IMG/VR virus record: IMGVR_UViG_3300046311_000263
Coordinates: 1 to 64,000 of that record
Source of the DNA: a virus
Direction: 5' to 3' (one strand)
DNA: 64,000 bases
The translations under genes were made by a program, and so were the position numbers. Shown here one piece after another: positions 208 to 6,113 of the stretch; the first letter of the stretch is position 1; each line of letters starts with the position of its first letter. Below the pieces are notes generated by a model. It worked only from the letters and a program-made list of their open reading frames with translations, had not been told where the DNA came from and ran no database searches.

Positions 208-489
208 ATGAATACATATGTAGTTGCTTTTTTGTCGTTTCACACTAACGAGATCCTAATGCAAGAAGTACTTGCAGAATCTAAGCTAGAAGCCGCGCTC
301 AAGTATCTTAATGATTCCACTCAGTGGGACGAAGTTGTAGCAGACTCATTCGAAGATCTACACGAACAGCTTGCCAACGCCGATGCCGTACTAGAAGTGC
401 TTCAGATCAATAACTCGCGGGCCGGGCGGTCAGGTTCTGGATTGCAAATCCAGCTAGCGGAGTTCAACTCTCCGGCGAGTCTCCATTAA
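208..489 (+). CDS. hypothetical protein; 3' end runs through tRNA-Cys
   Basis: 93-aa ORF directly after a promoter. Confidence 0.65.
   Translation: MNTYVVAFLSFHTNEILMQEVLAESKLEAALKYLNDSTQWDEVVADSFEDLHEQLANADAVLEVLQINNSRAGRSGSGLQIQLAEFNSPASLH
412..485 (+). tRNA. tRNA-Cys(GCA)
   Basis: Anticodon arm CTGGA-TTGCAAA-TCCAG, T arm CGGAG-TTCAACT-CTCCG, U73 discriminator, encoded CCA; 1:72 mismatch. Confidence 0.85.
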
Positions 490-587
490 TGCAAGTTATC
501 TCATACAAGCCAGAAGAGCCTAAAGTATTTATTGTGTGGTACTTTGACCAGTATGGGTTTCTTTACGTTAAAACATTGCGTGTGTAG
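489..587 (+). CDS. small hypothetical protein (32 aa, MQVISYKPEEPKVF...)
   Basis: TAATG coupling to upstream ORF; stop lies inside the 5' end of tRNA-Gly. Confidence 0.35.
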   Translation: MQVISYKPEEPKVFIVWYFDQYGFLYVKTLRV

Positions 588-651
588 TTCAATGGTAGAA
601 TAGGACGTTGCCAACGTCTAGACGAGAGTTCGATCCTCTCCACCCGCACCA
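578..651 (+). tRNA. tRNA-Gly(GCC)
   Basis: Cloverleaf, anticodon arm GGACG-TTGCCAA-CGTCT, GTTCGA T loop, ACCA end. Confidence 0.92.
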
Positions 652-663
652 GCTAAGTATATA

Positions 664-1014
664 ATGACATTTGTAAAAGTTGAACAAAATTTTCTAGGAA
701 ATGTTTATGACATTTACGATATTAGTTTATTGCGAGAAACTAAGTCACTAGAAGCGATAGGACTTAAACTAACCGAAGAAGTTGGTGAAGTAGCAGAGCA
801 AATTAATGTAATTTGCGGAAATATTAACAAAGACCTAAAAGAGCCAATCGAAGGTGAAATTGCAGATCTATTAAATTGTGCTCTTTGTATTTTGTTCAAG
901 GCATACCCAGAACATAATGTATATGAGATTCTGGCAAAGCTTAATATGTCTATGGAAGCTAAAAATAAGAAGTGGGTTAGTAACCTAACTTCTACCAAAA
1001 TTACGAGTCTGTAG
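664..1014 (+). CDS. mazG: MazG-like nucleotide pyrophosphohydrolase
   Basis: KLTEEVGEVAE and GEIADLL acidic motifs of the all-alpha NTP-PPase fold. Confidence 0.8.
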   Translation: MTFVKVEQNFLGNVYDIYDISLLRETKSLEAIGLKLTEEVGEVAEQINVICGNINKDLKEPIEGEIADLLNCALCILFKAYPEHNVYEILAKLNMSMEAKNKKWVSNLTSTKITSL

Positions 1015-1095
1015 GAAGTACAACTACAGTCTGAGCTGAGGAAGTCGATCGACGGAGTGTTCAGCCCACAAATGATTAGATCGATTCGTAGTACA

Positions 1096-1166
1096 GAACA
1101 TAGTAGCTCAGTTGGATAGAGTGTCGCGACGGTGAAGGTCGGTGGTTCGAGCCCACTCTATGTTCG
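1096..1166 (+). ncRNA. tRNA-like RNA with truncated anticodon arm
   Basis: Acceptor GAACATAG/CTATGTTC, canonical D arm (TAGCTCAGTTGGATAGAG) and T arm (GGTGG-TTCGAGC-CCACT); anticodon arm reduced to TCGC-GACG-GTGA; no CCA. Confidence 0.7.
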
Positions 1167-1188
1167 TCTTACATTTAAAATTTCTTAC

Positions 1189-1217
1189 TTGAAAGTGCTG
1201 GTTTTTCAATATATAAT
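1189..1217 (+). promoter_or_regulatory. sigma70-type early promoter
   Basis: TTGAAA-17bp-TATAAT. Confidence 0.75.
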
Positions 1218-1244
1218 GTATTTATACATTGAAAAGGCAACAAT

Positions 1245-1529
1245 ATGCGCAAAATCTTTTTTACATACCATACCGGCTTTTGTGGCTCTGACGGCTACGA
1301 AATGGTCGAATTTGATGACGAGGTTACTAACGAAGAGCTAGATCAGTACGCTTACGAAGGTGCTATTTCTAACGCGGAAATGTATGGTATCTACGCTACA
1401 GAGTCTGCTACTGATAATCACGACGACGATGACGACGATGAAGAATATATCGGAGACGAGTATTCTGACAACATCGAAGGTTACTGGTGTGACTACGTTG
1501 CTGAAAAGCACAAAGGGTACATTACGTAA
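1245..1529 (+). CDS. highly acidic small hypothetical protein
   Basis: 94-aa ORF, AAGG RBS, own promoter, poly-Asp run. Confidence 0.8.
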   Translation: MRKIFFTYHTGFCGSDGYEMVEFDDEVTNEELDQYAYEGAISNAEMYGIYATESATDNHDDDDDDEEYIGDEYSDNIEGYWCDYVAEKHKGYIT

Positions 1530-1756
1530 GCAATTTTGATCTCAAGAGCGCAGTTAAGAACTCAGTAAAATTTGAAAGGTACCGTAAGGGTAACCTATGG
1601 TACCTAGCAAGGGACGATCAGTATAATATCCTGTCGTTTCCGGTTCCTATTGAAGATACGGGTGATGCTACCTTTGAAGACGTAGATAAAGGTATCTATT
1701 TTATGCGTTATATACGCAAGCATCTGGAAACAATTAACAACGGTTCCTTAGCATAG
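1526..1756 (+). CDS. phage hypothetical protein lacking a canonical start (possible GTA start or pseudogene)
   Basis: Open frame encoding VKFERYRKGNLWY...FPVPIEDTGDATFEDVDKGIYFMRYIRKHL; no ATG/GTG/TTG at its 5' end. Confidence 0.6.
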   Translation, partial: VSNFDLKSAVKNSVKFERYRKGNLWYLARDDQYNILSFPVPIEDTGDATFEDVDKGIYFMRYIRKHLETINNGSLA

Positions 1757-1818
1757 TCGGCCTAATGCAGCGGTTTCATACGCCGCGATCATGTGTTCAA
1801 ATCACATAGGAACTACCA
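1742..1818 (+). tRNA. tRNA-Met(CAT), elongator or Ile2 type
   Basis: Cloverleaf, loop TTCATAC, ACCA end; lacks initiator hallmarks. Confidence 0.88.
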
Positions 1819-1824
1819 AATAAT

Positions 1825-1899
1825 ACCTCTTTAGTTCAATGGACAGAATAGGGGTTTCCTAAACCTTTGGTGCATGTTCGATTCATGCAAGAGGTACCA
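1825..1899 (+). tRNA. tRNA-Arg(CCT)
   Basis: ACCTCTT/AAGAGGT acceptor, loop TTCCTAA, ACCA end. Confidence 0.9.
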
Positions 1900-2165
1900 T
1901 GTCAAAGCTATTCTCTACAGTAGGCACTCTGACCCTAGACTCAGAGCTAACTTTTGGTAAGTACGAAGGCTGCACTGTATATGACGCACTTAGTGCAGAT
2001 CCAACCTACATAGCCTGGTTATATGTAGAAGCAGGAAAATCCTTTAAAGAAGAAGTTAAAAAAGTTCTAGTTACCAGACTTCTAGAACTATGTAACGATA
2101 AGAAGCTCTCTAAAACTAAACACAAGAACTATGAACCTTGGAACCCTGATGATGTTCCCTATTAA
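1899..2165 (+). CDS. hypothetical protein with FGKY...YIAWL motif (DUF3820-like)
   Basis: LTFGKYEG..V.D....DP.YI.WL motif. Confidence 0.7.
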   Translation: MSKLFSTVGTLTLDSELTFGKYEGCTVYDALSADPTYIAWLYVEAGKSFKEEVKKVLVTRLLELCNDKKLSKTKHKNYEPWNPDDVPY

Positions 2166-2170
2166 ACAAA

Positions 2171-2425
2171 ATGAATAAACTACAAATGTCTACAAATATG
2201 CAATCCGCCCTAGATGCCGTTCGCGGCCGTCAGTTCATCGTAGGATCTATTGATCCTACAGGCACGTTTTCTATCAGTGCTCGTCCTACTACTCACCCTA
2301 ACAGGATTCTTGCCGACCGCGAGTCTGCGCGTCTAGCTGGTATGTATCCTGGTAAAGCCTTTATCGTGATGCAGCTGACCGGTGGTTCTATGGTTCCTGC
2401 AGCTCCTGCAATTCAGGCTCTGTAA
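2171..2425 (+). CDS. hypothetical protein
   Basis: 84-aa ORF with phage-like codon use. Confidence 0.7.
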   Translation: MNKLQMSTNMQSALDAVRGRQFIVGSIDPTGTFSISARPTTHPNRILADRESARLAGMYPGKAFIVMQLTGGSMVPAAPAIQAL

Positions 2426-2431
2426 AGTTTT

Positions 2432-2507
2432 GCCCCTGTAGCTGAGAGGTTCAAGCGCTGCTTTTACACGGCGGGGTATGTCAGTTCGAGTCTGACCGGG
2501 GGTACCA
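2432..2507 (+). tRNA. tRNA-Val(TAC)
   Basis: Cloverleaf, loop TTTACAC, T arm GTCAG-TTCGAGT-CTGAC, ACCA. Confidence 0.88.
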
Positions 2508-2510
2508 AAA

Positions 2511-2690
2511 TAAGCTGTAACCAGATGACAGTATCCGCTTTAGCGATAATTGTTACGTTCAGCCGTCGCGCATCCGCAGACGTTAAACTATGAGGAAGGC
2601 AAGCTGGAATAGACAGCCAGTCAACGTGAGACTTAAAATCCCAACAGATCATTGGGTCAACTCTTGGTAGTTATCAGACTAAACTACCAC
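2511..2690 (+). ncRNA. candidate structured ncRNA between tRNA-Val and tRNA-Phe
   Basis: Series of hairpins (about 2514-2563, 2564-2582, 2603-2617, 2665-2689); no credible + strand ORF. Confidence 0.5.
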
Positions 2691-2693
2691 AAT

Positions 2694-2769
2694 CCTGCTT
2701 TAGCTGATGTGGTCATAGCGGCGGTCTGAAGAGCCGTTGAACTTGGTTCGATTCCAAGAGGTAGGGCCA
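2694..2769 (+). tRNA. tRNA-Phe(GAA)
   Basis: CCTGCTT/AGGTAGG acceptor, loop CTGAAGA, GCCA. Confidence 0.9.
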
Positions 2770-2850
2770 TAATTTTAGTATACAGCGTAAGCGCTTACGT
2801 CTCTAATCAGGCTCAGCGACCTCCGACTGAGATTGTATACTAAAATTATG
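2768..2850. repeat. 17-bp perfect inverted repeat enclosing two hairpins
   Basis: CATAATTTTAGTATACA ... TGTATACTAAAATTATG. Confidence 0.8.
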
Positions 2851-2924
2851 GCGCATTCGTATAGAGGTCATTACTGCGGATTGTCTATCCGCTTACGGGA
2901 GTTCGATTCTCCCATGCGTCGCCA
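2850..2924 (+). tRNA. tRNA-Asp(GTC)
   Basis: GCGGA-TTGTCTA-TCCGC anticodon arm, GGGAG-TTCGATT-CTCCC T arm, GCCA. Confidence 0.9.
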
Positions 2925-2930
2925 AATAAT

Positions 2931-3004
2931 GAGAGTGCTTAGCTCATAAGTAGAGCAGACCGTAAGGTATCGCGAGCAGAATCAGAACCTGCACACTCTC
3001 GCCA
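2931..3004 (+). ncRNA. tRNA-like RNA with a GNRA tetraloop in place of the anticodon loop
   Basis: GAGAGTG/CACTCTC acceptor plus GCCA, D arm GCTC-ATAAGTA-GAGC, ACC-GTAA-GGT mini-arm, GCAG/CTGC T-like arm. Confidence 0.7.
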
Positions 3005-3011
3005 AAACAAT

Positions 3012-3086
3012 TGGTGCTTTAGTATATTCTGACAATATACACTCCGGGGTGTATATTGGGGCCCTGAAAAGGGTCGGTGCCAGCCA
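3012..3086 (+). ncRNA. tRNA-sized CCA-terminated structured RNA
   Basis: TGGTGCT/GGTGCCA acceptor-like stem (G:U rich) plus GCCA; hairpins AATATACACT-CCGG-GGTGTATATT and GGCCCT-GAAA-AGGGTC. Confidence 0.55.
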
Positions 3087-3092
3087 AACAAC

Positions 3093-3180
3093 GGAGTCTT
3101 AACGTGTATGGACCACGGTACGCTTGGAAAGCGTTACGCTTGGGCAACCGGGTGGGGTTCGATTCCTCAGATATCCGCCA
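3093..3180 (+). tRNA. tRNA-Ser(GGA)
   Basis: Loop TTGGAAA, long variable arm GCTTGG-GCAA-CCGGGT, G73, CCA; irregular acceptor stem. Confidence 0.82.
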
Positions 3181-3193
3181 AAATTAAACTACA

Positions 3194-3478
3194 ATGTCTA
3201 AACTACTTTACGAAATTCATATCACTTGCTATACTAGCCAAGCCAAGCAGGCGGCCTTCGCCGCAGCTGAACTACACTGGAAGACTAGCGAGATTATGCG
3301 TGATCCCGTTCTAGGTAATGATACATACTACTATTTAACTAAATATGCTGCTACTTTGGATCAGGCCATAGAGTTTCTAAGCGCTGCATGTCATACACTT
3401 CAATTCAAATATAATGTCATTATCGTACGAGAAAAGATTGAACATATCGTGTACGATATTAGACATAGACCAAAATGA
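3194..3478 (+). CDS. hypothetical protein
   Basis: 94-aa ORF with ATGA overlap to the next gene. Confidence 0.7.
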   Translation: MSKLLYEIHITCYTSQAKQAAFAAAELHWKTSEIMRDPVLGNDTYYYLTKYAATLDQAIEFLSAACHTLQFKYNVIIVREKIEHIVYDIRHRPK

Positions 3479-4017
3479 GCAAAAATATTTTTCTAATTGC
3501 AGACTACCATTTTGGGCACGAAAGCCCCTATGTTAAGTTTAAACGGGCCGACGGTTCTCCGTTAAGGCCCTTTTCGTGTTCTTTGGAAGCTGACGAACAC
3601 ATGGTTCAGGAACACAACAAGCTGGTAAAAGCAGGTGACCGCGTCTACGTATTAGGAGACGTAACTTTTCATAAAAAGCACCTCCACTGGCTTGAAAAGA
3701 TGAATGGCAATAAAGTCCTAATTAAAGGTAACCATGACCTCGAAGACCTATCAGTTTATCAACGATATTTTGATGATGTTAGGGGTGTTCATCAGTTTGA
3801 TGGTTTGCTTCTTACCCATATTCCTGTGCATCCTGCTAGCCTGGCTCGCTGGGGCTTCAATGTACATGGGCATCTTCATGCTAATCGTGTAATGAGAATG
3901 CACGGTAGTACTAATACCGATGCCACCGACGATAGGTACTTTTGCGTATCCGTTGAGCAAACAAATTACAAACCAATGTCACTTGAAGAGGTTAAAAAAT
4001 GGAAGCCAAAGCAGTAG
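3475..4017 (+). CDS. calcineurin-like metallophosphoesterase
   Basis: DYHFGH, LGD, GNHD, HIP and HGHLH motifs. Confidence 0.9.
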   Translation: MSKNIFLIADYHFGHESPYVKFKRADGSPLRPFSCSLEADEHMVQEHNKLVKAGDRVYVLGDVTFHKKHLHWLEKMNGNKVLIKGNHDLEDLSVYQRYFDDVRGVHQFDGLLLTHIPVHPASLARWGFNVHGHLHANRVMRMHGSTNTDATDDRYFCVSVEQTNYKPMSLEEVKKWKPKQ

Positions 4018-4163
4018 ATTTTACTGACAAGTCCTTACTGAATATTCGTAAGGATATCCTAACTGAAGAAATTAAAGAAGTTGAATATACCCTTGCCAGC
4101 ATGTATAAAGAATGGCATGAACTACTTAAGCAGTTAAAAACCTATGAGACTTGCGCTACTTAA
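3999..4163 (+). CDS. small coiled-coil hypothetical protein (54 aa, MEAKAVDFTDK...)
   Basis: Hand-translated; GAGG RBS; fills the operon gap. Confidence 0.55.
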   Translation: MEAKAVDFTDKSLLNIRKDILTEEIKEVEYTLASMYKEWHELLKQLKTYETCAT

Positions 4164-4296
4164 TAACGAAAACAATACACTCTCAATCTATGAGGGAAAT
4201 ACTTTGGTTGCAATGTTCGAGGCGCCAAACGACTACAAATACACGCCTGAAGAGATAGAGCAGGCCCGACTAGAAGAATATAAGGAATTAGCTTGA
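4144..4296 (+). CDS. small hypothetical protein (50 aa, MRLALLNNENN...)
   Basis: Hand-translated; stop overlaps the thyX TTG start (TTGA). Confidence 0.55.
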   Translation: MRLALLNNENNTLSIYEGNTLVAMFEAPNDYKYTPEEIEQARLEEYKELA

Positions 4297-4961
4297 CAGT
4301 ATCAACAAAACTAGTAGCTCTAACGGTACCTCTAGTGGAAGGCATAGAGACACCAGATGAATTCATTGCTTATGCTGCTAGAGTATCGAACCCTGCTAAT
4401 CAGCATAATACTTTGACTGCTCCAGGCCTTATTGCTTATCTTATTAACAACAAGCACTGGTCGCCATTAGAAATGGTTAGTGCCACCCTAGAGGTTACTA
4501 CGACTAGAGATATTGCTCGACAAATGCTAAGGCATCGCAGTTTCTCTTTCCAGGAATTTAGCCAAAGGTACGCAGAAGCTACGCAACTAGGACATACTTT
4601 CAGAGAAGCTAGACTTCAAGATGATAAAAATCGTCAGAATTCTATTGAAACTGACGATAAAGAATTAGAAGCCTGGTGGCAAGCCCGTCAACTACAAGTG
4701 TGGACGCTAGCTACAGAAGTTTACAGTGAAGCCCTAGCTAAGGGTATTGCTAAAGAGCAGGCACGTGCTCCTCTACCAGAAGGTATTACTAATTCTAAGT
4801 TATACATGGCTGGCACTATTCGTTCTTGGTATCACTACTGTGACTTACGAAAAGGCAACGGTACTCAGCGTGAACATGCCGCTATTGCATTAAGCGCTAT
4901 TTCTGCTCTTGCCCCCAAGTTCCCCTCAATTTTCAACAACCCTAAAATTAAATTAGTATAA
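4293..4961 (+). CDS. thyX: flavin-dependent thymidylate synthase
   Basis: RHRSFSFQEFSQRY signature, HWSPLE, TAAGGA RBS. Confidence 0.95.
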   Translation: MTVSTKLVALTVPLVEGIETPDEFIAYAARVSNPANQHNTLTAPGLIAYLINNKHWSPLEMVSATLEVTTTRDIARQMLRHRSFSFQEFSQRYAEATQLGHTFREARLQDDKNRQNSIETDDKELEAWWQARQLQVWTLATEVYSEALAKGIAKEQARAPLPEGITNSKLYMAGTIRSWYHYCDLRKGNGTQREHAAIALSAISALAPKFPSIFNNPKIKLV

Positions 4962-5359
4962 TGTCTAATAAATCGCCTAAGGGCAGCGGTCGTAAGGCAG
5001 GTCTTACTCGTTACAAAACCTCCAATTCTTACGAGACCAATCGTAAGCGTAAGCTGGCTCGTGCGCTGAAGCGCAACCCGGAAAATAAGCAAATTGAGCT
5101 GGCACTACAAGATAAGGGAATTCCTAGGAAGACTCCTAAAGTGCCGGTTTGGAGCCATTCATCTATTAGAATTGCACAACTAATGAAGCAATTCATGGGC
5201 AAGTACAATAAGAATATTCTTAGTTCCGATATTGACGCATGGCTTGTGGCTATTAAGGATCATAAGGACCAGTTTCTGCCTAAGAAAGTTATTGAAGCTA
5301 AAAAGCAAGGCAGCTTGTTTTCCATTGGTCAGCGTGTTCGTATTGTGCTACCTAGCTAA
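4961..5359 (+). CDS. basic hypothetical protein
   Basis: 132-aa K/R-rich ORF, TAATG coupling. Confidence 0.75.
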   Translation: MSNKSPKGSGRKAGLTRYKTSNSYETNRKRKLARALKRNPENKQIELALQDKGIPRKTPKVPVWSHSSIRIAQLMKQFMGKYNKNILSSDIDAWLVAIKDHKDQFLPKKVIEAKKQGSLFSIGQRVRIVLPS

Positions 5360-5616
5360 TGTTAGTAGCTTATCTAATGTTTTGTCTAACTACTGCAATA
5401 GTAGCTCATATATACTTATTTAGTCACATACTCTCCGTTGTTGAAGACGTAGACGGTAAAAAAAATAATCTCATAGAGTATAAGGGTATTACAGTTACAG
5501 TTATATTTTTACTAAGCCTTGTTCTGGCTCCCGTACTGGTAGGGATATTAGTATCTGACTATAACAGTGACGTCTTTATTGATGCTACTATTGAAGCATT
5601 TTTAAATAAGGATTAA
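5359..5616 (+). CDS. putative two-TM membrane protein
   Basis: Two hydrophobic segments; TAATG coupling. Confidence 0.7.
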   Translation: MLVAYLMFCLTTAIVAHIYLFSHILSVVEDVDGKKNNLIEYKGITVTVIFLLSLVLAPVLVGILVSDYNSDVFIDATIEAFLNKD

Positions 5617-5626
5617 AAAATATATA

Positions 5627-5655
5627 TTGACACGCAGTGGTCAATAGTCTATAAT
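5627..5655 (+). promoter_or_regulatory. consensus sigma70 early promoter
   Basis: TTGACA-17bp-TATAAT with A-tract UP element. Confidence 0.9.
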
Positions 5656-5681
5656 ATATACTTAAATCGGAAAAACTTTAA

Positions 5682-5951
5682 ATGAAAACTTTCACGTTTA
5701 CGTATACTAAAGACAACGGCGATACCTCTGAGCGCACTTTGCTAGCACTAGTTACTCCTGGTGGTACTATGTACGCTGGTATTGACCTAAGTTCTATGCC
5801 TCCGGAAAAGGCTCAGAACTTTGCAGCAGACGCAGCTAATCTGTATGATGAATACTTGGCAGATCTAAAGGCTCTTCAAGTAGAGTACGACATTAAGCAT
5901 AACTATCGTCAGTTTAAAGCCGAAAATATTTCAGATCTGACAGAAATCTAA
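5682..5951 (+). CDS. hypothetical protein
   Basis: 89-aa ORF after a promoter. Confidence 0.75.
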   Translation: MKTFTFTYTKDNGDTSERTLLALVTPGGTMYAGIDLSSMPPEKAQNFAADAANLYDEYLADLKALQVEYDIKHNYRQFKAENISDLTEI

Positions 5952-5957
5952 ATCAGC

Positions 5958-6032
5958 GACTTGCAGGTGTTACGGCAGCATACCGGCCTCCAAAGCCGTG
6001 TGGTCGGAGTTCGAATCTCTGGCTCGTCGCCA
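5958..6032 (+). tRNA. tRNA-Trp(CCA)
   Basis: Loop CTCCAAA, T arm CGGAG-TTCGAAT-CTCTG, GCCA; two acceptor mismatches. Confidence 0.8.
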
Positions 6033-6039
6033 ATAATTA

Positions 6040-6113
6040 GCTCTTATAGTACATTGGTAGTACAGTTGCCTTGTAAGCATCAGAAGTTAGTTCGATTCTA
6101 ACTTGGAGCACCA
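6040..6113 (+). tRNA. tRNA-Thr(TGT)
   Basis: Loop CTTGTAA, GTTAG-TTCGATT-CTAAC T arm, ACCA. Confidence 0.9.

Follow-up and report, generated by a model that had tools for sequence, protein, structure and literature searches.

What can genes with a tRNA outline and an encoded CCA end, but no anticodon, be doing in the tRNA operon of a phage? Today most readings of such arrays invoke codon supply or an anti-defence role in which cleaved host tRNAs are replaced, and neither the supply nor the replacement role fits such genes. Two of them stand side by side on the plus strand (unit 1 at 2931-3004 and unit 2 at 3012-3086) in the 64-kb stretch of DNA analyzed here (the window), which is the first part of a 77,375-bp IMG/VR viral contig that is linear and approximately 73% complete. 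Several freshwater metagenomes contain DNA near-identical to this phage record. An earlier note on the window had described the two units as non-decoding tRNA mimics and as the best candidate for an undescribed system.

The units belong to a plus-strand tRNA operon of the early region (400-6100), in which the tRNAs recognized by ARAGORN (Cys, Gly, Met, Arg, Val, Phe, Asp, Trp and Thr) alternate with small ORFs and genes of nucleotide metabolism. The genes of the operon include those for a MazG-like protein, an ExoX-like C-terminal domain, ThyX, a metallophosphoesterase and a helicase. The pair has a tRNA on either side. Upstream lies tRNA-Asp(GUC) (2850-2924, plus strand), which is called by ARAGORN, scores 51.4 bits against the Rfam tRNA model and has an encoded CCA, and downstream lies a tRNA-Ser(GGA) (3093-3180, plus strand); the first ORF downstream of the pair starts at 3194. 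The A-rich spacers AAUAAU (2925-2930), AAACAAU (3005-3011, between the units) and AACAAC (3087-3092) measure 6-7 nt and lie on the tRNA strand, so the earlier description of two tRNA-sized units between tRNA-Asp and tRNA-Ser, spaced like tRNA genes, holds.

The operon contains other structured stretches. In the gap between tRNA-Phe and tRNA-Asp an element was found (2770-2849) that recurs in related phages (L011:3812-3896, L013:3350-3421 and L101:3021-3119). All four phages have its terminal stem of 14-17 bp, in which 6 of 14 pairs differ on both sides, and its interior is not conserved; the element might serve for RNase III-type processing or be released as a small RNA. The Val-Phe spacer (2508-2693) has a conserved core, GUCGCGCRUCCGCRGAC ... 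AUGAGGAWGGC ... GGAAUAGAC, in common with L012:3330-3563 and in part with L013:3152-3273, and this core has no Rfam match. Elsewhere, at G000 74283-74671 (L095:11283-11671), a perfect 193-bp tandem duplication, either real or an assembly artefact, comprises tRNA-Glu(UUC) and a 118-nt spacer; the words CUGAUGA ... GAAAC in that spacer recall a hammerhead core, and it has no Rfam match.

The minimum free-energy (MFE) folds of the two units are independent cloverleaf shapes of 18 and 28 pairs with zero mismatches. Unit 1 is a 74-nt four-way junction (-22.3 kcal/mol). Its acceptor stem GAGAGUG/CACUCUC consists of seven Watson-Crick pairs followed by G73 and CCA, its D stem GCUC/GAGC closes the loop AUAAGUA, and its T-like arm GCAG-AAUCAGAAC-CUGC has a 4-bp stem and a 9-nt loop. 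At the place of the anticodon arm stands ACC-GUAA-GGU, and the MFE fold reproduces the 3-bp stem with a GUAA (GNRA) tetraloop that had been noted there. The D arm had been called normal, which is true of its stem but not of its loop, where G18G19 is missing. In addition, the T-like loop AAUCAGAAC is without the T54/A58 signature and therefore the tRNA elbow of unit 1 is gone. A reading of AUCAGAA in unit 1 as an anticodon loop (CAG) was considered and rejected, because stacking of this arm on the acceptor stem gives the wrong geometry and a U33/R37 pattern has a 1-in-8 probability of arising by chance.

Unit 2 is a 75-nt four-way junction (-29.8 kcal/mol) with only one unpaired base in the junction. 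The 7-bp acceptor stem UGGUGCU/GGUGCCA (four Watson-Crick and three GU pairs) is again followed by G73 and CCA, in agreement with the acceptor-like stem and encoded GCCA end reported for both units. The first arm, UUAG-UAUAUU-CUGA, has a 4-bp stem and a 6-nt loop, the middle arm an 11-bp stem and a CCGG loop, and the last arm a 6-bp stem and a GAAA tetraloop. The arms are thus the stable hairpins with CCGG and GAAA loops that had been described, although CCGG is no special tetraloop. Unit 1, being all Watson-Crick, folds alike on both strands. For unit 2 the minus strand stops at -17.9 kcal/mol (z -1.0); owing to six GU pairs, the plus-strand RNA has an advantage of 12 kcal/mol over it, a gap that points to a structure at the RNA level and on the tRNA strand.

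Neither unit has a 5-bp anticodon stem with a 7-nt loop (U33, anticodon, R37), and neither has the G18G19 / T54-Psi55-C56...A58 elbow, the corresponding loops of unit 2 being UAUAUU and GAAA. As tRNA-shaped, CCA-ending sequences with no 7-nt anticodon loop they are unable to decode, as the earlier note had maintained. Its expectation that tRNA finders would pass them over was also correct: neither unit is called by ARAGORN or matches any Rfam family even at E<=10, and on 2931-3086 a 7-kb search at that limit gave no tRNA-clan match (criterion 29 bits). The minus-strand ORFs 2939-3091 and 3019-3147 have no PHROG match.

Could the two units have arisen by chance, or be tRNA genes in decay? We have scanned 937 kb of related phage loci on both strands for closures of 60-95 nt with a 7-bp acceptor stem and NCCA. 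The scan returned 26 cloverleaf-shaped units that adjoin tRNAs yet are missed by ARAGORN, and all of these but unit 1 have an ordinary 7-nt anticodon loop. Of the comparably stable closures that do not adjoin tRNAs, only about two seem to be due to chance, and the others are reverse complements of tRNAs, irregular tRNAs, and unit 2. Stable cloverleaf-plus-CCA closures outside tRNAs thus occur about once per Mb, and two such units, in tandem and in phase with the tRNAs, are not a product of chance. The fold z-scores against shuffled sequences (-2.62 for unit 1 and -3.43 for unit 2) are better than those of the neighbouring real tRNAs (-2.29, -0.41 and -0.20). Simple decay of tRNA genes is unlikely as well. 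All 46 base pairs of the two units are intact, there are two GNRA caps, and G73-CCA is kept in both; such clean helices and caps are unlike the point-mutational decay of a tRNA gene, and the same had been argued before. They imply that the units were shaped by selection somewhere, or, in the case of unit 2, that it never was a tRNA. As a separate observation, the arrays of related phages contain CCA-ending genes of 71 nt that resemble tRNA-Met(CAU) and whose D arm is reduced; ARAGORN misses these as well (L044:8665-8735 and L062:696-766).

The two units appear to differ in origin. Unit 1 retains the sequence of a D stem and position 26, UAGCUCA..GUAGAGCA. A covariance model built from it (R1) picks up ordinary tRNAs (Gly, Lys, Asp, Met, Val and others) with scores of 20-28 bits and E-values of 7e-5 to 0.01, the matches resting on the acceptor layout and on this D-arm sequence. 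This retrieval of ordinary tRNAs indicates that unit 1 descends from a tRNA. Unit 2 has nothing of a tRNA but the outline. No paralogue of either unit was detected by blastn against the phage's own 77 kb, and the units are unlike each other. An origin from neighbouring tRNAs was also considered, as the acceptor stem of unit 1 has a 6-mer in common with the phage tRNA-Ser(GCU) and the 3' end of unit 2, GCCAGCCA, agrees with three tRNA-Asn. It was rejected, for the bodies fail to align and matches so short are expected by chance among 834 tRNAs.

How the pair came to lie in the operon is clear from the relatives. Syntenic loci, found through the flanking phosphoesterase (57-72% amino-acid identity), retain the order Cys-Gly-...-Met-...-Val-Phe-Asp, and the part 3' of tRNA-Asp varies. 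In L011 there is nothing, whereas in L013/L014 and L101 tRNA-Ser(GGA) follows after a 6-nt spacer; the relatives' equivalent of the third spacer of the window, AACAACT, stands directly 3' of tRNA-Asp, and AAUAAU marks the start of a block that they lack. The locus L012 has peculiarities of its own: a tRNA with anticodon CUA, amber-reading and labelled 'Pyl' by ARAGORN, directly after tRNA-Asp (3911-3990), an 85-bit Rfam match to a permuted (two-piece) tmRNA within the tRNA array (1066-1319), and after the latter a tRNA-Sec-like match of 48.5 bits (1423-1509).

A related population that co-occurs with the phage gives the same picture. Its contigs were found in the runs X5 and X6, with a loose end in X7, and differ from the window at 18-19 positions plus gaps over approximately 370 nt (2247-2614). 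They join 2915 to 3093, the tRNA-Asp 3' end ...AUCCCGCCA being followed by AACAACU and then by position 3093. Since both the relatives and this population have tRNA-Asp, a spacer and tRNA-Ser, that arrangement represents the ancestral state. The 162-nt block AAUAAU-unit1-AAACAAU-unit2 hence evidently entered as one piece at a GCCA/A-rich junction, right after the CCA of tRNA-Asp, and the pair is, by this comparison of loci, a recent and lineage-specific block insertion. Its absence from every syntenic relative and from the co-occurring population makes the pair dispensable in nature. The block is identical in the runs X5, X6 and X8 (public contigs aligned on 900-3700), so that it carries no population signal.

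The downstream flank had been named as a tRNA-Ser. It is an irregular 88-nt tRNA-Ser(GGA) gene (3093-3180) with an encoded CCA, a bulged A in the 3' strand of the acceptor, a 4-bp T stem, a U-U atop the anticodon stem and a long variable arm. It is recognized by its fold and by a 19.5-bit Rfam match to tRNA-Sec. Its orthologues have either a clean 8/4 layout (L013:3731-3819) or, as in the window, 7 bp plus a bulge and a 4-bp T stem (L101:3201-3291), and ARAGORN overlooks the copies of the window and of L101. The L013-like layout is the irregular 8/4 tRNA-Ser type of phages (Mukai et al., PMC5389517). The variable-arm differences in the related population (3141 U>C, 3142 G>U and 3149 C>A) keep or improve the pairing. 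These compensatory changes, together with the shared irregular layouts, argue that tRNA-Ser(GGA) is functional, and as it is kept by compensatory change, the stretch around the pair is under structural selection.

The earlier note had proposed that homologues be collected from related phages; none was found for either unit, and no syntenic relative has the pair. Over 86 related loci, model R1 found no homologue of unit 1, with ordinary tRNAs instead, and the corresponding model of unit 2 (R2) found itself alone in the same loci and five whole related records. An exact and degenerate pattern of the unit 1 core was not found in viral_contigs or metagenome_contigs, nor was a pattern with fixed loops and free stems in metagenome_contigs; neither the hairpin pattern of unit 2 nor its variant with fixed loops and free stems occurred in viral_contigs. 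A blastn search of 2925-3092 against 50,697 GenBank phage records gave merely three 24-nt chance matches (E=6). Pattern and model searches depend on conserved words or a close model, and distant relatives may have been missed. With no homologue found for either unit, there is neither covariation nor evidence of persistence.

A partner gene of the two units is not found nearby, the neighbours being MazG, ThyX, the phosphoesterase and small ORFs. Within the 77-kb record (73% complete), no CCA-adding enzyme, RtcB or peptidyl-tRNA hydrolase was detected, and neither PF01981 (PTH2) nor PF01195 (PTH) had a match; a search of the record for an RNA ligase (Rnl1) ran without a working control. To speak of an undescribed system was consequently an overstatement for what are two orphan RNA genes in a dispensable block without a partner gene. 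The roles suggested in the same note (decoy, aminoacyl carrier or modulator of uncharged-tRNA sensing) are hypothetical.

Lineage-specific, lacking in all relatives including the co-occurring population, and with no homologues in the collections searched, the pair may seem to be a mere passenger. The block would then have been gained by tRNA-cassette recombination at conserved GCCA/A-rich junctions, and although transcribed and perhaps processed it would have no function in this phage, its units having degenerated or their function having been the donor's. The tRNA arrays of the clade indeed gain and lose units freely, and the tertiary-contact nucleotides are lost from both units. Neutral decay, however, does not give helices such as these: all 46 pairs are matched, two of the loops are GNRA caps, and both units keep G73-CCA. 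Moreover, the gain in one event of two units that were already anticodon-less implies maintenance in a donor. Relics of this kind are, in our judgement, an unlikely but serious explanation of the pair.

That the anticodon arm of a tRNA-like gene can be sealed and kept so is evident from another gene in the same operon (1096-1165, plus strand; Rfam tRNA 40.7 bits), in which no CCA is encoded. Its D and T loops are canonical, G-1:C73 extends the acceptor stem to 8 bp, and the anticodon arm is replaced by UCGC-GACG-GUGA, a 4-bp stem with a GACG loop. Orthologues are located at L013:1535-1603 (identical to L101:1617-1685) and L021:2820-2889; throughout the family the loop is GRCG, and G-1:C73 and A1:U72 are invariant. 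In the three distinct sequences 63 of the 63 pair cells are paired (slid controls, 32-54%), and 11 of the 21 pairs are changed on both sides, which in the mini-arm holds for three pairs out of four. This covariation indicates that one sealed-anticodon family in the operon is under purifying selection. The claim that an anticodon-less design has been selected, made for units 1 and 2, is thereby borne out in this clade for a conserved and covarying gene that is separate from them. G-1:C73 is the identity pair of HisRS, so that histidylation of the 1096-1165 RNA without decoding may be put forward as a testable idea.

The likeness between this family and the pair lies in a short, tetraloop-capped stem instead of an anticodon arm and in the shared tRNA operon. 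In contrast to the family, with its canonical D and T loops, G-1:C73, covariation and lack of CCA, units 1 and 2 are without the elbow and without orthologues, and their CCA is encoded. A model of the family (R3) matches 1096-1165 alone in the window at E<=0.001 and not units 1 and 2. Among the 86 loci, R3 matches of at most 71 nt were inspected as candidates for further sealed-arm units, and all turned out to be ordinary tRNAs.

A spacing-constrained pattern (the D arm of 1096-1165, 16 nt, GTC and its T arm) brought up analogues in 22 viral and 8 bacterial-genome stretches. They amount to 23 distinct sequences including the copy of the window; three belong to this phage clade and some 20 are further ones (L102-L127). 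A perfect 7-bp acceptor stem is present in 17 of the 23. None of the 23 encodes CCA, and most have a 12-nt mini-arm (a 3-4-bp stem plus a 3-4-nt loop) at the place of the anticodon arm. Their hosts are unrelated phage contigs and bacterial MAGs (Prevotellaceae, Clostridia, Alistipes, Gaiellales and Peribacteria); some are part of phage tRNA arrays, and many stand alone. As far as can be read from these genes, sealed-anticodon tRNA-like genes are a real and recurring design, and by analogy this recurrence lends plausibility to a non-decoding role of units 1 and 2.

Our preferred reading, to which we give somewhat less than an even chance, is that units 1 and 2 are excised, non-decoding, tRNA-shaped small RNAs, alike in kind to RNAC and RNAD of phage T4 and with a putative function. 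Their transcription, processing and stability, and any role in trans, we infer as follows. The units would be transcribed together with the flanking tRNAs in the polycistronic tRNA operon, and each would fold alone into a four-way junction in which the acceptor stem stacks on the adjacent helix of 4-6 bp. Host RNase P would cleave at the 5' ends of the units, and 3' exonucleases would trim the 6-7-nt A-rich trailer, left by the 5' cleavage of the next unit, to the encoded G73-CCA. Stable CCA-ended RNAs of 74 and 75 nt would be released. As a minimal substrate, bacterial RNase P needs an acceptor stem that stacks with another helix, plus a 3' RCCA; given their stacks of 7+4 and 7+6 bp and their 3' RCCA, both units would be expected to serve as substrates.

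With neither an anticodon loop nor a D/T-loop elbow, such RNAs would not act on the ribosome, and any activity would have to run via the acceptor stem and the CCA end. They might for instance compete for enzymes or toxins that read this end. Because the elbow nucleotides are lost, they would be poor mimics for factors that read the L-shape of tRNA. A bolder proposal places units 1 and 2 in a broad, unpublished class of phage non-decoding tRNA mimics with sealed or replaced anticodon arms, which would be excised by the tRNA machinery and act via their acceptor/CCA ends, e.g. by soaking up host toxins or enzymes, so that presence or absence between co-occurring phage populations would reflect a continuing arms race. 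We consider a class of this breadth improbable.

The units might, alternatively, act in cis, as extra entry sites for RNase P and 3' trimming or as insulators against misfolding of tRNA-Asp and the irregular tRNA-Ser, in the manner of plant-mitochondrial t-elements and tRNA punctuation. An RNase P-compatible stack of acceptor and helix with CCA would suit such modules, and the operon has other conserved non-tRNA structured spacers (the post-Phe element and the Val-Phe spacer). However, the flanking tRNAs have processing signals of their own and the pair is not at the ends of ORFs; moreover, the relatives process Asp-Ser with a spacer of 6-7 nt alone, so that an extra module is unneeded there. 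A role of this type seems to us decidedly improbable. That the 26-bp near-palindrome of unit 2 (3033-3058) is instead an operator or promoter for tRNA-Ser and the early genes, with an incidental RNA shape, is very hard to credit. In its favour are a minus-strand match of the palindrome to itself and a sigma-70-like CTGACA-17-TATATT (10/12) at 3029-3057. However, 7 kb contain 31 promoter-like sites where chance would give 15, no second copy of the palindrome occurs in the window (0.77 expected by chance at 3 mismatches), and the acceptor stem, CCA, GU pairs, GAAA hairpin and unit 1 are all left unexplained.

If units 1 and 2 are taken as excised small RNAs, the closest parallel may be found in phage T4. 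RNAC and RNAD (species 1 and 2 RNAs) are small RNAs from the tRNA region of that phage that are made along with the tRNAs, and their role is unknown (PMC3014915, PMC9697503). Like the units, they are encoded by non-tRNA small RNA genes inside a phage tRNA cluster and on the tRNA strand. Differences are that the units have no sequence similarity to them (blastn, 50,697 phage records) and are known here from their genes alone. Furthermore, RNAC and RNAD are longer (approximately 120-140 nt) and are not known to copy a four-way cloverleaf. With canonical tRNAs (RF00005) the units share the size, the cloverleaf topology, the 7-bp acceptor, the discriminator plus CCA and the gene spacing, but not the 5-bp/7-nt anticodon arm, the elbow signature, the Rfam match or the ARAGORN call.

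Irregular tRNAs (8/4, G-1) and allo-tRNA-like polycistrons have been described from phage and bacterial clusters (Mukai et al. 2017, PMC5389517), and some of the irregular tRNAs are charged, unused in translation and proposed to be regulatory RNAs (PMC5389517). They resemble the units as non-canonical tRNA-shaped genes in tRNA clusters, yet they keep the anticodon loop, whereas units 1 and 2 do not. In YrlA, the tRNA-like domain of tmRNA and t-elements, too, part of a tRNA is copied (the acceptor/T arm and sometimes the D arm) and there is no decoding. Neither YrlA (RF02553) nor tmRNA matches the units, whether at the gathering threshold or at E<=10, and unlike these RNAs the units have free 5' and 3' acceptor ends, no Ro-binding helix and no G3:U70. 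They also differ from plant mitochondrial t-elements and tRNA punctuation in not being located at the ends of mRNAs.

What this would mean for phage biology depends on which of the genes is considered. For the pair itself the claim is weak, since both units are orphan and dispensable, and the conserved 1096-1165 gene with its scattered analogues offers the better entry point. If, nevertheless, the RNAs of the pair are made and act via their acceptor ends, they would constitute a new kind of phage small RNA directed against proteins of tRNA processing, charging and tRNA-targeting defence, and they might provide a handle on the 50-year-old puzzle of RNAC and RNAD of phage T4.
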